Below are positions 42,480-57,231 of a stretch of 64,000 bases of DNA, piece after piece. The number at the start of each line of letters is the position of its first letter. The first letter of the stretch is position 1. Position numbers and translations under genes: made by a program. The stretch covers positions 30,766 to 94,765 of the forward strand of contig JBHLPH010000007.1 of the NCBI GenBank assembly GCA_048939625.1. Direction: 5' to 3'. Below the pieces are notes generated by a model. It saw nothing but the letters and a program-made list of their open reading frames with translations. It made no database searches and had not been told where the DNA came from. Source of the DNA: Promethearchaeota archaeon (GTDB lineage Archaea; Asgardarchaeota; Hermodarchaeia; Hermodarchaeales; Hermodarchaeaceae).

Positions 42480-44492
42480 GTGGGGTTTAAAAACATTCAA
42501 TCTAGCCAGTGGTTCCGAAGCTATACGCAAAAACTCATTGCTATTGCCTTTACCTTGGCCATTATCTTCTCTTTTTTCCCCATACTAATCGGATATTTTG
42601 TTCCGCAAATTGCTTCTGTGTATCTTTATAGCGCTTATATCGTTGTATTTCTAACAATTTTTGGAATTTGCCTTATTCTATTTCAGTTTCACAATCCCAT
42701 TGCGCGACGGCTCGCTTATATCATTTCAATTACAAGTCTATTAGGGGCATTGGCTCATTACTGGATACTGATTACGAATCTGTTCTTGGGAATCCCACTC
42801 ACTTATCCTAACCCAACAGCTTACATCGCTGCAGCAGCAAATTTAGTCATGCTTGTTGGGTTTGCCCTTGTATCCATTGAACAGCGGAGACGATCCTGGC
42901 GACAAATCGGAGGCTTTGTTCTCATCACCGGATTATTTGCAGTATGCATTCTCTCCACTTACTTGATGAATCTAACCTTTCACCCCCCAATAATTCCGGC
43001 TATCGGAACAGGATTACGAATTCTTATCGGATTCTTAACTGCCATCTTTGCTTGGATTTTTTATTTCAACCAAGACCCCCCTCCGGAGGTTATTGGACGA
43101 AACAGTCGCCTCCTCCTCGTCCTTGCAAGTCTCGTTCTCATCTTAGGTTATACTGCATTTGCTTTTCAGTATGCCATGGAGTGGAACACACTCTCGGTAT
43201 TCTATTATGCTGGATCAATATCAGATGCGATAACCCTCTTTGCCATATTCATCTTCCTCATCGCCGTTCTTGTCACTTTCACAGAGACCCTCGAAAACAT
43301 GGCTTCAAGCCGTCCGTTATCAATCAGTTATGAAGTCCTTAATCGGGTGGTCCTGATTACATCACTTATCGTGGTCTTGACGATTTCAGGAGCAATCGCT
43401 ATCACCCTAATTGGGCGGGTCTTGCTAGTCTATCTCTCTCCTATTGATGCAACTATTGCCTTACAGACTATAGGAACTGGTTTACTCATTGGATTGGGTA
43501 TAATCATAATCATTGTTGCAGGTGCTGGCTACTATCTTTCTCGGTGGTTATACCAACCTCTTGCGTATCTTGAAGCCGAAACCGCTGCTGTAACCGAACC
43601 TGGAATTATCTCATATTCGGAACCTCAAGGTCTTGTCTTGACTGAATTGCAGGGCGTATCTGATAGCTTTGCGAAAATAATCGATGAATTAAGCCGTGTT
43701 CGAGCGGAGCTTCGCCGCTTCACCATAACAGAAAGTCGGTTACGAACCCCCTCAACATCCCAACTTGCTAAGTTGGACTATTATCTCGCAATTATAAATA
43801 ATTCAGTGACCAACCGAATCCAAACCATAATGAGTCTTTCTGAAGCTAGTCGAGATCTCTCAGATCCTAAAGAACGTGACCACATTTGGGACATGATTCA
43901 AACCGAAATTACCGAGATACATTACCTTTTGAAAAGTGTACAATTGCTTCGTCTTATCGACACTCAAGCTCTTCCCGAGTTCCATCGAATTGATTTAACG
44001 CCTTTGCTAACTGAACTGATCACAAAATTACAGGAAGTACTTCCTAAAACCACAAGGCAAATCGCGATATCTTTACCTTCTGAGAAGGTCAATGTTTTGG
44101 CGAACGAATACGTGTCTCATATCTTTCAGCCCTTAATCCGATTAGTTTTGGAACGGGATGTCGGTGGACCAGCAATTATTGAAGTGACATTTACTCAGGT
44201 GAAAGAATCAGGAATCGATTATTGGCAGATAGATATCACCCATCCAAAGTGGGTGCTCCCTGATATTGAAAAAGTACTTCTCTTTCGTTCAGACCCCGAA
44301 CAACCTCAAAAAGCGAACCCCAATCTATTATTGGTTCCTAATCTGGTTGAGTATTTCCGTGGTAAATTCCGTGTAAAGAATATCGTGATTGATGATCCTC
44401 AATATGGCACGGTAATTCAAGTTCTCCTCCCCCGAGCAAATCGTCGCCGAGGAAAACCTTCACCTAACGATGAAGCTGAAGAAGAGGACTGA
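42480..44492 (+). CDS. multi-TM sensor with degenerate histidine-kinase core (pseudokinase)
   Basis: About 9-10 TM, HAMP-like linker, HisKA-like helix YYLAIINNSVTNRIQTI without His, HATPase-like fold lacking N/G1/G2 boxes. Confidence 0.8.
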   Translation: MGFKNIQSSQWFRSYTQKLIAIAFTLAIIFSFFPILIGYFVPQIASVYLYSAYIVVFLTIFGICLILFQFHNPIARRLAYIISITSLLGALAHYWILITNLFLGIPLTYPNPTAYIAAAANLVMLVGFALVSIEQRRRSWRQIGGFVLITGLFAVCILSTYLMNLTFHPPIIPAIGTGLRILIGFLTAIFAWIFYFNQDPPPEVIGRNSRLLLVLASLVLILGYTAFAFQYAMEWNTLSVFYYAGSISDAITLFAIFIFLIAVLVTFTETLENMASSRPLSISYEVLNRVVLITSLIVVLTISGAIAITLIGRVLLVYLSPIDATIALQTIGTGLLIGLGIIIIIVAGAGYYLSRWLYQPLAYLEAETAAVTEPGIISYSEPQGLVLTELQGVSDSFAKIIDELSRVRAELRRFTITESRLRTPSTSQLAKLDYYLAIINNSVTNRIQTIMSLSEASRDLSDPKERDHIWDMIQTEITEIHYLLKSVQLLRLIDTQALPEFHRIDLTPLLTELITKLQEVLPKTTRQIAISLPSEKVNVLANEYVSHIFQPLIRLVLERDVGGPAIIEVTFTQVKESGIDYWQIDITHPKWVLPDIEKVLLFRSDPEQPQKANPNLLLVPNLVEYFRGKFRVKNIVIDDPQYGTVIQVLLPRANRRRGKPSPNDEAEEED

Positions 44493-52821: not shown

Positions 52822-53064
52822 ATGTTGTCGAATACTGAAGCACTCCAACATAGCACCCGGAGGAAAATCATGCACAAGCTTTCCAAGGACAAGGCCTTCC
52901 TCCGTGAAATCGCCAAAGATTTGAACATCCCCACTTCAACTGCTGCTTACCACTTAAAACGACTGACCCAGATTGGTCTCATCAACGAACGACGAGGCGT
53001 TTATCATGTTTGGTTTGATCTAACGGATAAGGGCCGACAGCTGCTCGATAGCGAAGCAGCATAA
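52822..53064 (+). CDS. small ArsR-family winged-helix regulator
   Basis: ALQHSTRRKIM...REIAKDL...TAAYHLKRLTQIGLI...LTDKG. Confidence 0.88.
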   Translation: MLSNTEALQHSTRRKIMHKLSKDKAFLREIAKDLNIPTSTAAYHLKRLTQIGLINERRGVYHVWFDLTDKGRQLLDSEAA

Positions 53065-53463
53065 GCTGAGTAGGAAAGCACAGCGTGATTTTCCACTCAC
53101 CGTTTTTTCTTCATTGATTTTTCTGTAAAGTATAGCTATATTTCATTTATCCAAAGCACCACATAATCCTCTTCATGAGGGAAGTGGTATCATAATGGCA
53201 AATAAAGTAAAATCTCATGATCGTGATAAGCTCTCTGGAAAAATTAATCCAGATACAATTCTAAAATCGGTACGTGTTCATTAATGTCAGTGGCGTGAAG
53301 CGGATTTATCTTGAAACCCTAATAAAAGTTGCAATTCTAATGGCATCATACAGATTGTGGGTCGTTGGGGTATCTGATTGAGGAGATCCTCATGGAAAGA
53401 GAAGAATACTGAGGTAGCCTATCCTTCCTCATTATTAAGTTCGATGCCACTCCCCCTCTAAAA

Positions 53464-53585
53464 TTTATATAGCTAATCTTGAATAATAGTTCGCGGTTAG
53501 AGGGTGTATTGGTTTCCAAGGCATCGCAGAGTCACACTACTAGTTCTCAACCTCAGTTAGCCAAGGCTTTCGTACACCTCTAATC
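53464..53585 (+). promoter_or_regulatory. TATA box and structured 5' leader of the large secreted protein
   Basis: TTTATATA at 53464; GGTTAGAGGGTGTA (53495-53508) pairs with TACACCTCTAATC (53573-53585); inner TTGGTT/AGCCAA. Confidence 0.55.
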
Positions 53586-53604
53586 ACCAAGGAAAGGAAT
53601 AATC

Positions 53605-55788
53605 ATGAAACGCAATCAAAAAGCAATCTGTGCCCTGTTCTTTACCCTCACCGTGTTTTTTTCGGTAACCATCGTCTTACAAACGATGGCCGTCTGGCCC
53701 CCACCAGAATTCGGCATTGACCCACCCAGCTTTTCGAACGTCCAACACACTGTAGACAACTTCACGGCGGTCACAGTTACATGGAATGTGGATTTTGATC
53801 CACTATCCGAAGCAAATTGGATGACCTTCTACTGGCGTCCTGTAGGCGGAAGCTGGACGGGCCTTCAAACTTGGAATCCTGCCTATAGCCAAGGCTACTC
53901 TCGCACTATCAGTGGTTTAGATCCAGGAACTTATGAGTATAAAATCACAGCCTGGTCTCGAGACTTCATCGAGGATGTCTATACAACCACAACAGGACCC
54001 CACTCAGTTGACTGTAGCCCCATCAGTATTACTAACGTGCAAGCAACCCAGCGACCTGCTCCTGAAGACTATATTGTCGATTATAGCTGGGATATTAACT
54101 GGGATCCTTCACTGACCAACCATTCAGTCAGTTTCTACTTTAGCAATATAAGCACTCTAACAGAAAATGATATTATACAAACATGGAACATTGATAACTC
54201 AACGTTCGATTATTCATATCCAGTGCCATATTTTGGTACATTCTGGTACCAAATCAAAGCCGAGGCAATTAATTCAACCGAAGTTATTCAAACTGAAACC
54301 AGTGTTGCTGAAATCCAGGTGAATTTACTCCAGCCTTCTAATGAAGATGTTCTCGTCTTCGAAGATGCACATGTTAAACAATCTCATCCAAATACGAACT
54401 ACAACGGTGAATCCCTAATTGTCGCTGATGAACTCCCCGACCCTTTTGAAATACAGCAAATCCAGACTTATGTGAAGTTTGACTTGCGAGGTGTTTTCGA
54501 TGTCACGTCTGCTGAATTAACACTCTACGTTCAAGGAGTCAGTGGCACACCCGAGGATATTCATTGTAAAGGTGTAACCAGTAACTGGTTTGAATCAAAT
54601 CTCACATGGAATAACCGACCTTCAAGTTTTCAAACTTCTGAAGATTCGATCATTCCAATAGTAGGACAATGGGTAACATGGGATGTCACAAGTTGGCTGC
54701 AAAGTCATGAAGATCGAGTTGTAGCTTTCGTTCTCTACACAATGTCATATCAGACTATTACTTTTACAGCAAAGGAAGGTGGTGATTATCCCATATCAGG
54801 GAATATCCCCTATTTGCACGTAGAAGGTAATTATCGAGCACATCACTGGGAAGCATATGATTATACTTACTCTAATTCCACGCCAGTCCCACCAAATCCC
54901 ATGAATCCGCTTCCCCCAAATTATCCCCTAGATCCACCAATCTATCCTGGTTTCATCGTTCCACTTTATACACTTTATAATCCACCAGGAGACCAAAGTT
55001 ACCAGAGAATCACACATTCCGAAGAGATGAATTTCGACTTGTCTTTTTCAGTTTGTGCAGAAGTTGGTGTCGGAGGGTTTATGGGAGGAATATCGGGTGA
55101 AATAGATGTGAAATGGATGGCTGGTGTAAGTTTTTCAGCAAAACAATCTGTAACAACTGCAACCTCTAGTGATTTGTCTTTGTACCCAGAACTTCTTGCT
55201 GATGCGGGTGGTGATACAATCGTAGGACTTCGCTATACAGCTGACATACTAGGATTTGGGGTTACTCGAGTTAGTAACGAAGGTTCCATTTCAACTGTCT
55301 ACCATGTCATATTTGAGAATGTTCAATATCAAGGCGAATTCCAAGGATTCAGAGGATTTTCGAATATGTGGAGGATGTTCGTCGTAGATGAAAGTGCTGA
55401 TCCGAACTTCATAGAACTTGAAGATTTGAGAGGTGTTGAAGGACCCTATACTTATCCCTCAAATGATGGGAATTACTTCCTTGATCCCTGTCAAGACTTT
55501 GATTTCGTAATTACTAGATCACTTAGTGCAGGGTATAAAATTAAACAAAGTTTTAATTTCGAACTTAAATTTCCAGTTAAGGTCAAGATTAAACTTGGAT
55601 TCGAGATGGAGGTTCAATCAGAATCAACATTCGAAACAGAGGTTCATATTGAGGATTCTTACCGTGGAATTGCATTCAATATCAATAGCTGGAGTAGTAT
55701 CTTGCTTAACGAAGGTCTTCCTCGGTTCGGTTTTCAAGTCAATGATTGGATTTATTGGTTTAACAGTGAATACTATACGTACTTCTAG
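53605..55788 (+). CDS. secreted multidomain protein: FN3/Ig + DNRLRE(CBM96)-like + C-terminal domain with two amphipathic beta-hairpins
   Basis: Signal peptide; ISGLDPGTYEY (FN3); EDAHV...PNTNY...TYVKFDL...WFESNLTWNNRP...WDVT (DNRLRE); Pro-rich linker; NPPGDQSY; alternating hydrophobic hairpins. Confidence 0.8.
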   Translation: MKRNQKAICALFFTLTVFFSVTIVLQTMAVWPPPEFGIDPPSFSNVQHTVDNFTAVTVTWNVDFDPLSEANWMTFYWRPVGGSWTGLQTWNPAYSQGYSRTISGLDPGTYEYKITAWSRDFIEDVYTTTTGPHSVDCSPISITNVQATQRPAPEDYIVDYSWDINWDPSLTNHSVSFYFSNISTLTENDIIQTWNIDNSTFDYSYPVPYFGTFWYQIKAEAINSTEVIQTETSVAEIQVNLLQPSNEDVLVFEDAHVKQSHPNTNYNGESLIVADELPDPFEIQQIQTYVKFDLRGVFDVTSAELTLYVQGVSGTPEDIHCKGVTSNWFESNLTWNNRPSSFQTSEDSIIPIVGQWVTWDVTSWLQSHEDRVVAFVLYTMSYQTITFTAKEGGDYPISGNIPYLHVEGNYRAHHWEAYDYTYSNSTPVPPNPMNPLPPNYPLDPPIYPGFIVPLYTLYNPPGDQSYQRITHSEEMNFDLSFSVCAEVGVGGFMGGISGEIDVKWMAGVSFSAKQSVTTATSSDLSLYPELLADAGGDTIVGLRYTADILGFGVTRVSNEGSISTVYHVIFENVQYQGEFQGFRGFSNMWRMFVVDESADPNFIELEDLRGVEGPYTYPSNDGNYFLDPCQDFDFVITRSLSAGYKIKQSFNFELKFPVKVKIKLGFEMEVQSESTFETEVHIEDSYRGIAFNINSWSSILLNEGLPRFGFQVNDWIYWFNSEYYTYF

Positions 55789-56025
55789 CTTCTTCTTTTT
55801 CGAGGTGAGTGATTTCAGTCGAATTCACTCACGACTCCTCTTTTTTCTATCAAAACTTGAAATGTGTCATAGTTAATCCCATAGCTGTAATAAATTTATA
55901 GACAAAAATGGTGGGAATAATAGGTTTTATCAAAATTAGCGTTCTCTAGTGGAGATTGCTATCAGGTAAAATTCCAAGCACTAGTGTTCTTACATTTTCC
56001 AAGGGATGCTGTAATTTTTTATGGG

Positions 56026-56646
56026 CTATGAGGTATTTCTTTGTAAGTGAAGTAATGCTATCCTTGCCTCGTGCGCTACGATTTCATCAGAATCAGTCTC
56101 GGCTACTTCTTTTAGAAGGGGGAAGGCTCGCTGATCACCTAGGAAGCTTAATCCGACGACAGCTCCAGTTCGAACGGTGGAGTGTTGTGCTTTCAATTCT
56201 CTCTCTAAAAGATCATATGCATCTGCGCCACCGAGGTGACCCAGTGCTCGAAGAATTTGGTCCTGTACATGGATGGTTTCATTATCATAACGATGTAACA
56301 ATTCAGGTGTTGCACGAGAGTCTTTGAGGAAGGCTAGCGCGCTGATGGTTTGGAATCGAACTGCCTCCTCTTCGTCATCGAGTAAGGGGAGCAGATACTC
56401 GGTCTCTTCTTTAGTTCCAATAAATCCAATGGCGATGGCTGCCTCGAGGCGCGTGATAAAGTCGGTGTTGGTTAGAGCTTTTCGTAATGCAGGAAGAGCC
56501 GTGCATGCTTCTGATCCGAGTTGTCCCAGGGATCGGATGGCTTGACGACGTATCTCTTCGTCTTCGTTAGTCACGTCTTGGATTTGCGAATTTATCTGAT
56601 GAGTTCGATTAGAGCTTGATGATTCAGAGGAATGGTGTGGCGCCAT
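56026..56646 (-). CDS. HEAT-repeat (PBS lyase-like) protein
   Basis: Repeats IRRQAIRSLGQLG, TRLEAAIAIGFIG, VRFQTISALAFL, VRTGAVVGLSFLG. Confidence 0.9.
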   Translation of the reverse strand: MAPHHSSESSSSNRTHQINSQIQDVTNEDEEIRRQAIRSLGQLGSEACTALPALRKALTNTDFITRLEAAIAIGFIGTKEETEYLLPLLDDEEEAVRFQTISALAFLKDSRATPELLHRYDNETIHVQDQILRALGHLGGADAYDLLERELKAQHSTVRTGAVVGLSFLGDQRAFPLLKEVAETDSDEIVAHEARIALLHLQRNTS

Positions 56647-56724: not shown

Positions 56725-57231
56725 CTAGTAGCGTTTCTTCTTTTTCTTCCGTTTAGTCTGCTTGCGTTTAACGCGTTTTCGTTTGGGCAGCTCATCAGTG
56801 GGGATGCGCTCAGGTCCCGGTGGGAGTCCCAGATCATCGGCTGGTGGATAGATGATTTCAGCAAACAAGGCGCCAAGTTGCCCTCCGACGCCGGTGATGA
56901 CGCCTCCAATAAGGGCGACAAAGAGTTGTGGGGCTGGTATCAGTTGTCCGACAAGAATCCAGGCGTTAATGAAGGCGTTTGTGCTACTAGCGGCCATAAT
57001 CCCGAATAGAGTGAGCCAGGCAAGGAATCCGGCTAGGAAGCTGATAATGATGGCGCGGAGGGTATTTTTCATGAGAAAGCCAGCAAGGATTCCTGCGATG
57101 ACGATGAGGATTCCTTGCCCGGAAAATTGGATGAATAGGGCAATGAAGAAACAGAAGAGAAATCCTATCAGGATGTTGTGTTTCCTTCGGAAGAAGGCTC
57201 GGACATTTTCCATGCTAATTTCCCCAGACAT
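56725..57231 (-). CDS. four-TM membrane protein with polybasic C-terminal tail
   Basis: Gly-rich TM helices; KRKRVKRKQTKRKKKKKRY terminus. Confidence 0.82.
   Translation of the reverse strand: MSGEISMENVRAFFRRKHNILIGFLFCFFIALFIQFSGQGILIVIAGILAGFLMKNTLRAIIISFLAGFLAWLTLFGIMAASSTNAFINAWILVGQLIPAPQLFVALIGGVITGVGGQLGALFAEIIYPPADDLGLPPGPERIPTDELPKRKRVKRKQTKRKKKKKRY

Follow-up and report, generated by a model that had tools for sequence, protein, structure and literature searches.

Lectin toxins of the aerolysin/ETX-MTX2 type (aerolysin, epsilon toxin, LSL, natterin/Dln1) are, by general knowledge, secreted proteins in which a carbohydrate-binding part precedes an elongated all-beta module with an amphipathic hairpin flanked by Ser/Thr-rich segments. 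Multimodular carbohydrate-active enzymes make use of CBM96, which is usually attached to catalytic modules and whose founding member is alginate-specific and binds alginate (PMC9971899). Here we describe a 727-residue protein encoded in a 64-kb stretch of DNA from a Promethearchaeota archaeon (the window, with positions counted from its first letter). Like the CBM96 enzymes, it carries a bona fide CBM96/DNRLRE domain within a multi-domain protein that is predicted to be secreted, but it has no recognisable catalytic module, and the partner of its CBM96 is instead a C-terminal domain of a new beta family without conserved catalytic residues. Its layout of a lectin plus a beta module parallels that of LSL, natterin/Dln1 and aerolysin, and an oligomer is predicted for one of its homologues. 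In contrast to these toxins, it matches none of their profiles, its fold similarity to them is at noise level, and it has two long hairpins rather than one, the second of them conserved and charged. Our tentative reading is that the protein is a self-associating extracellular beta module that multimerises a CBM96 lectin.

The C-terminal domain belongs, by its sequence, to a previously unnamed family of extracellular beta domains, mostly from Asgard genomes, for which we use the label YDPPG. Residues 440-727 gave no sequence match in Pfam, NCBIfam or the PDB, a profile of the domain found no PDB sequence at E-values up to 10, and 20 family members matched no Pfam family up to the same limit. 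An exhaustive search of 1.8 billion cluster representatives returned two true relatives of the domain, namely P0003, a 697-residue protein from a hydrothermal-vent metagenome with the same architecture and 33% identity over the whole length, and P0005, a 310-residue protein consisting of a signal peptide and the C-terminal domain alone. Two further matches from this search, to cadherin-like and DUF7507 giant proteins, covered just 35-68 residues, repeatedly, and were set aside as low-information repeats. Searches of word-indexed proteins, run with the domain and, at near and longer lengths, with a three-sequence profile, recovered P0005 alone besides the protein itself. A metagenome scan with the profile of this domain (A1) confirmed nothing, and one with the profile of the stand-alone Asgard family described below (A4) added three loci.

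When 400 genomes of the phylum were searched by profile, the motif strand-YDPPGxxSY alone came up at first, within open frames of about 260-300 codons. Once extracted, these frames formed a family of secreted or anchored Asgard proteins of about 225 residues. Each has the signature near its N-terminus, the two hairpins in register, a loop of the form EDL(T/R)GxxGxY and a WF strand at its C-terminus; it was the signature motif that gave access to the distant relatives. Profile comparison of A1 with A4 (hhalign, 98.7%, E 2.8e-16, 216 aligned columns) confirmed, at the level of sequence, full-length homology of the C-terminal domain with these stand-alone proteins. Six residues (Y458, P460, G462, S465, W718 and F719) are invariant in 11 aligned members, and conserved polar residues are few (S465 and D607); the invariant set of Y, P, G, S, W and F looks structural rather than catalytic. 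Most stand-alone members end 0-2 residues past the WF pair and the others up to 8 residues past it. With the stand-alone Asgard YDPPG proteins the 727-residue protein shares the signature, the two hairpins in register, the loop and the WF strand. Within the family, it and P0003 alone fuse the domain behind FN3-like repeats and CBM96. Its hairpin 1 is 8-10 residues longer, and a GGDxI(Y/V)G motif of its subfamily is missing from the stand-alone group.

The first ~110 residues of the domain, including hairpin 1, recur in giant Asgard surface proteins and in one protein from Fibrobacteria (hhalign 96-97%). A 981-residue Asgard surface protein (L056:318-3263, + strand; G082 contig 29), which has a second paralog about 16 kb away, begins with a signal peptide and Ig-like domains, continues with the YDPPG module, here enlarged by long insertions, and with Big_7-type repeats, and ends in a C-terminal transmembrane anchor. 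Such giant proteins, 1000-2600 residues long, occur in at least seven other Asgard genomes. In the Fibrobacteria protein (L052:3137-5923, + strand; metagenome-assembled genome, JADFYW010000002.1), which has 928 residues, an unassigned domain at the N-terminus precedes the N-terminal part of the module and Ig-like domains follow it; the end of the protein weakly matches a sorting tail of the type IX secretion system (19.7 bits, under the cut-off of 23). With the patterns used, 185,579 species genomes yielded no other bacterial relative. In three Asgard genomes and on the P0005 contig, stand-alone members adjoin a gene for a doubly anchored protein of 240-300 residues, made of an N-terminal transmembrane segment, a sequon-rich ectodomain and a C-terminal transmembrane segment plus basic tail. 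Loci at which a stand-alone YDPPG gene adjoins a membrane-protein gene are L021:2441-3247 (+), L026:2418-3134 (-), L023:2380-3144 (+) and L051:1280-2170 (+). Two of the neighbouring membrane proteins are 24% identical (E 9e-6) and the others are alike in architecture alone; they could be docking partners or immunity proteins. No gene of this kind lies next to the 727-residue gene at the present locus. All three contexts place the YDPPG module outside the cell and at a distance from the membrane, whether it is free with a possible anchored partner, borne by an Ig stalk that is anchored, or joined to a lectin. A literature search on the YDPPG motif and on Asgard pore-formers found nothing relevant.

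The gene is a single open frame of 727 codons plus stop. A second public assembly, GCA_016550385.1, encodes an identical protein with the same neighbours, which shows that the gene is no assembly artefact. The anatomy had been proposed before in a reading made from the letters of this DNA without database searches (the sequence-only reading), and most of it held. The signal peptide, or alternatively an N-terminal anchor, is indicated by the sole hydrophobic segment of the protein (residues ~7-27, Kyte-Doolittle), which is followed by TMA|V, so that cleavage would presumably take place after TMA. The same hydropathy analysis, run over the whole sequence, found no C-terminal transmembrane segment, in keeping with the earlier claim and unlike the neighbouring M28 peptidase and caspase-like proteins, which end in such a segment plus a basic tail. 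The DNRLRE/CBM96-like domain is firmly identified from its matches to Pfam PF24517 (E 4e-23, 82.5 bits, cut-off 26) and NCBIfam NF033679 (E 2e-22, 80 bits, cut-off 34) and to the solved chain PDB 8wab_A (E 8.8e-6, residues 248-361). The FN3/Ig domains fared less well: two tandem repeats of about 100 residues are indeed present at residues ~38-240 (mutual identity 28%, E 0.001), but their FN3 signals are weak or below threshold. FN3 chains in the PDB matched this region at E 0.05-0.12, the ortholog P0003 matched Pfam fn3 at E 5.5e-4 (20.5 bits, under the cut-off of 25), and the 727-residue protein itself had no Pfam fn3 match. The proposed Pro-rich hinge is present as well, although P0003 lacks it (an 18-residue gap in the pairwise alignment), and it is followed as claimed by the family signature, here YNPPGDQSY. 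No internal duplication was found within the C-terminal domain (E 0.42).

The two long alternating hydrophobic/polar hairpins of the sequence-only reading are real features of the domain. Of 18-residue windows in which 16 or more positions alternate there are 32, against 0.84 in shuffled sequences, and all of them lie within residues 472-517 and 636-677; the best 26-residue window has 25 alternating positions, which was equalled in one of 2000 shuffles. Alternation is 19/24 and 16/18 in the strands of hairpin 1 and 22/25 and 23/26 in those of hairpin 2. In the AlphaFold prediction, likewise, each segment forms a long beta-hairpin, with strands 466-489/500-517 in the first and 631-655/658-683 in the second. 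Beyond this likeness the two differ. Hairpin 1, which is followed by the Ser/Thr-rich SAKQSVTTATSS and fits, as a sequence pattern alone, the insertion hairpin of aerolysin-type toxins, is the least conserved part of the family (BLOSUM column scores average 0.14 there and 0.93 in the rest). Members differ by more than 10 residues in its length, its tip is usually Gly-rich with aromatic or hydrophobic residues, and it is modelled with the lowest confidence of the whole domain (predicted local distance difference test, pLDDT, 50-61) and is among the lower-confidence parts in the model of a stand-alone homologue, L009. Hairpin 2 is conserved in register throughout the family, reaches pLDDT 87-88 in the L009 model and carries a conserved N-x-S/T sequon in six homologues. 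Since hairpin 1 is variable and hairpin 2 conserved and confidently modelled, any membrane-inserting element would be hairpin 1, and such insertion, if any, would be an aerolysin-like rather than a MACPF/CDC-like arrangement. The C-terminal domain of the 727-residue protein has no N-glycosylation sequon; we rejected this lack as a signal, because it is not significant (P 0.11) and the homologues do carry sequons.

The structure predictions are all-beta. The AlphaFold model of residues 440-727, made from a 17-row alignment, has a pLDDT of 69, a predicted template modelling score (pTM) of 0.61 and strands of 18-26 residues, and that of L009, made from 20 rows, reaches pLDDT 82.5 and pTM 0.79; just two helices, of 4-7 residues, occur in the models. 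The structural neighbours of the first model were secretins and outer-membrane barrels alone (Foldseek E 5e-5, template modelling score, TM, 0.15-0.25), with VIA Z-scores of 5.2-5.6 against secretins at root-mean-square deviations (rmsd) of 5.4-8.4 A. Secretin pore domains (PilQ, InvG, GspD, pIV) share with this model several antiparallel strands of 18-26 residues in a large curved sheet, and they work as oligomers. In contrast, the superposition is poor, no secretin profile of Pfam matched this protein or the family members, and the host here is an archaeon. Secretin ancestry was thus rejected given these TM and rmsd values and the fact that secretins are missing from the matches of the better L009 model; the likeness of the model is one of strand length, not ancestry. 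Among aerolysin-type chains, epsilon toxin gave Z 3.5 (3zjx, rmsd 4.5 A, 92 aligned) and Z 2.7 (1uyj), 3g4n gave Foldseek E 0.13 and BmALP1 (6lhz) Z 2.0, the Z-scores all being under the level of unrelated folds. The L009 model had no Foldseek match below E 0.001 in the PDB, and its best VIA Z among 48,161 PDB representatives was 3.0 (2.5 in a second look). In the benchmark of the fold-comparison tool, models without a match usually still reach Z 7-8, which indicates that the L009 shape either departs from solved folds to an unusual degree or lacks compactness in the monomer. The viral structures of BFVD gave nothing below E 0.001. The fold matches listed include no MACPF, CDC, gasdermin, leukocidin, TasA-like or class II fusion chain, which is an absence and not an exclusion.

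The self-assembly proposed as one option by the sequence-only reading finds indirect support in L009, which is 23% identical to the 727-residue protein. Four copies of this homologue were predicted to associate with an interface score (ipSAE) of 0.81, against 0.02 for the best of three controls, with at least 82% of contacts agreeing between runs and a partner pLDDT of at least 74. Among proteins solved as pairs, 20 of 30 attained the mark used for ipSAE, and among those solved as single chains one of 23 did so; this calibration was made with two copies and other alignments and hence applies only roughly to four copies of L009. As there is no solved relative, the result is not the memory of a known complex. 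In the predicted head-to-tail contact, one copy contributes residues 8, 10, 60-78 and 107-121 and the next copy residues 136-150 and 200; a ring or an open chain would both fit it. Both L009 hairpins (35-56 and 159-182) lie outside this interface.

Taken together, we would picture the 727-residue protein as follows. Exported by the Sec pathway, this multi-domain glycan-binding protein would hold two FN3-like spacers and a CBM96 lectin joined by the proline-rich hinge to the all-beta domain. The C-terminal domains would associate with each other head-to-tail through beta-edge contacts into a ring or chain, and the assembly would display several CBM96 units for high-avidity binding of a polysaccharide, which could belong to the surface or matrix of the producing cell or to a partner cell. 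The two amphipathic hairpins would be long strands of the domain sheets, hairpin 2 being a fixed structural element and the variable, Gly-rich hairpin 1 the part likeliest to touch a ligand or a membrane. Our confidence in this reading is a little short of even. It draws on the firm CBM96 assignment, the full-length homology to stand-alone proteins, the oligomer score of L009 and the extracellular contexts of the family; that the better monomer model finds nothing above Z 3.0 would also fit a subunit that is compact only in an assembly. Several points weigh against it. The oligomer test was made with a distant homologue, and the model of the domain itself is moderate. The interface columns are no better conserved than the remainder of the alignment (mean BLOSUM scores 0.65 and -0.03, against 0.93 for the rest), for which reason interface conservation was rejected as support. 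Moreover, long, strictly amphipathic hairpins with a Gly-rich hydrophobic tip and a sporadic accessory distribution suit a toxin equally well.

The sequence-only reading had named such a toxin as its first option, and of its interpretation the anatomy stood, namely an unusual all-beta module with long amphipathic hairpins, whereas what lies behind the pore-forming part is the sequence pattern. According to this explanation the protein would be a lectin-targeted beta-pore-former of a new fold family, whose CBM96 docks on a glycan of the target cell, whereupon a ring forms and hairpin 1, possibly with hairpin 2, turns into a transmembrane beta-barrel as in aerolysin-type toxins. Hairpin 1 has the right make-up, in that each strand alternates about 10 times, the tip is hydrophobic and rich in Gly, and the exit is rich in Ser/Thr, and its variability and low model confidence are as for a segment that refolds. 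The head-to-tail oligomer of L009, the strain-specific insertion of the gene (see below) and the fact that the sole structural neighbours of the model are oligomeric barrel formers are likewise consistent with it, and the small membrane-protein gene beside some stand-alone members could be an immunity gene. However, no profile of the known toxins was matched: PF01117, PF03318 and related profiles had no match in the 727-residue protein at E up to 1, and even at E up to 10 none of 20 members matched a profile for aerolysin, ETX-MTX2, MACPF, CDC or leukocidin proteins. The MACPF/CDC profiles PF01823 and PF01289 matched neither this protein nor the family members. MACPF/CDC proteins in their soluble form have two helical clusters (TMH1 and TMH2) by a bent central sheet; both segments here come out as beta-hairpins in the models, which are predictions. 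The fold comparison with MACPF/CDC and aerolysin/ETX-MTX2 structures that had been proposed as a check gave epsilon toxin at noise level and no MACPF or CDC chain among the matches listed. The hairpins fit the role poorly in other respects, given that hairpin 1 varies in length and has a strongly acidic polar face in the giant proteins, that hairpin 2 has a Lys/Glu-rich face here and a sequon elsewhere, and that both lie outside the predicted interface; in the giant proteins the module is, in addition, tethered to the membrane of its own producer. With these points against it, we consider a receptor-targeted pore-forming toxin unlikely. A broader proposal, in which the YDPPG domain represents a new fold family of membrane-active Asgard proteins that form a head-to-tail ring, insert hairpin 1 as a pore or a fusion-loop-like anchor and are delivered free, on an Ig stalk or by a CBM96 lectin, seems to us doubtful.

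It may also be that the domain does not assemble at all. In that case it would be a monomeric binding head, an adhesion module for a ligand or partner that makes the protein a two-headed adhesin with CBM96 at one end and YDPPG at the other, and the oligomer prediction would be not transferable or a false pass. Up to about 19 of 100 monomers may pass the complex test, which together with the unconserved interface gives this idea some room; in the giant anchored proteins the module has a distal position on the Ig stalks, like the head of an adhesin, and the membrane protein next to stand-alone members could be its receptor. On the other hand, the L009 score is high and reproducible with controls near zero, and the L009 monomer model fits compact known folds unusually poorly, so that we give a purely monomeric head a small chance of being right. 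We regard it as very improbable that the domain is a polysaccharide lyase or hydrolase, a catalytic module of a new kind to which CBM96 would be the accessory. The usual company of CBM96 would favour it (PMC9971899), as would the frequency of beta-rich jelly-roll enzymes and the presence of GH12 cellulases among the weak Foldseek matches of the L009 model (E ~0.01). Yet the GH12 matches have TM 0.13-0.15 and a probability of 0.15-0.21 or less, no CAZy-type Pfam family was matched, the domain has no conserved acidic pair or His/Arg/Tyr set, and the YDPPG module is also found within the Ig stalks of giant surface proteins.

Two genomes of the same genus keep the order radical SAM-GNAT-ABC permease-ArsR-HEAT-orf168-amidase but lack the gene, and their ArsR-HEAT interval measures ~430 and ~100 nt, against 2.9 kb in the window. 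Since the flanking synteny is kept without the gene in these relatives, the gene is a strain-specific accessory insertion. The segment at 53111-56036 is a variable spot; the closest relative, whose amidase is 89% identical, has unrelated sequence of about 380 nt in its place. No flanking repeats were found around it. The C-terminal domain is present in none of 18 genomes of the same family and as a single copy in the genome of the window. The GC content of the gene (41.4%, against 44.4% for the 64-kb window) was rejected as a sign of transfer, because it matches that of the other secreted-protein genes there. On the same strand and 540 nt upstream, at 52822-53064 (+), lies a gene for an 80-residue ArsR-type winged-helix regulator (Pfam HTH_5, E 3e-10). 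A dedicated role in regulating the 727-residue gene is improbable, as this regulator is 96-99% conserved in the two same-genus genomes that lack that gene. Other observations in the window are a 168-residue open reading frame at 56725-57231 (-), with 78-87% identity in same-genus relatives, and one of 670 residues at 42480-44492 (+), neither of which matched a Pfam family at E up to 0.001, and genes for a thiolase and a DUF35-type OB protein, which by general knowledge are at the least characteristic of archaea. The features of the locus are collected in Table 1.

Table 1. Features of the 727-residue gene and of the segment that contains it, with positions in the window.
Feature	Position	Strand	Basis
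Strain-specific segment with the gene, between ArsR-type and HEAT-repeat genes	53111..56036		Synteny against two same-genus genomes
Whole gene, 727 aa + stop	53605..55788	+	Single long open reading frame; identical copy in second assembly
Signal peptide or N-terminal anchor, residues 1-29	53605..53691	+	Basic n-region, 19-aa hydrophobic core, TMA|V
FN3-like repeat 1, residues ~38-135	53716..54009	+	Internal repeat; weak FN3 matches
FN3-like repeat 2, residues ~136-240	54010..54324	+	As repeat 1: internal repeat; ortholog fn3 match
CBM96/DNRLRE carbohydrate-binding domain, residues 253-406	54361..54822	+	PF24517, NF033679, PDB 8wab
Pro-rich linker, residues 424-448	54874..54948	+	Sequence
C-terminal all-beta domain, unnamed 'YDPPG' family, residues 449-727 (279 aa)	54949..55785	+	hhalign, AlphaFold
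Family signature Y-[DNK]-P-P-G-x-x-S-Y after first strand, residues 458-466	54976..55002	+	Y, P, G, S invariant in 11 aligned members
Amphipathic hairpin 1, residues 466-517	55000..55155	+	Alternation; Gly-rich hydrophobic tip GVGGFMGGISG, Ser/Thr-rich exit
Amphipathic hairpin 2, Lys/Glu-rich polar face, residues 631-683	55495..55653	+	Alternation; conserved in register
Conserved C-terminal strand D-x-x-x-W-F and aromatic tail, residues 714-727	55744..55785	+	W, F invariant

Knowledge is scant on the means by which Asgard archaea make contact with syntrophic partners, construct their surface or combat competitors. What is new here is the link between three architectures, the lack of a match to any solved fold and the prediction of an oligomer, and the YDPPG family thereby emerges as a module displayed in three formats: free, fused to a lectin and anchored on a stalk. 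The stand-alone members, with about 225 residues, are small enough for expression and structure solution. If the domain were membrane-active, it could represent a new archaeal beta-pore-former and would matter for how cells interact in the lineage that stands nearest to eukaryotes. As a scaffold or adhesin only, it would still be a new building block of Asgard surfaces.

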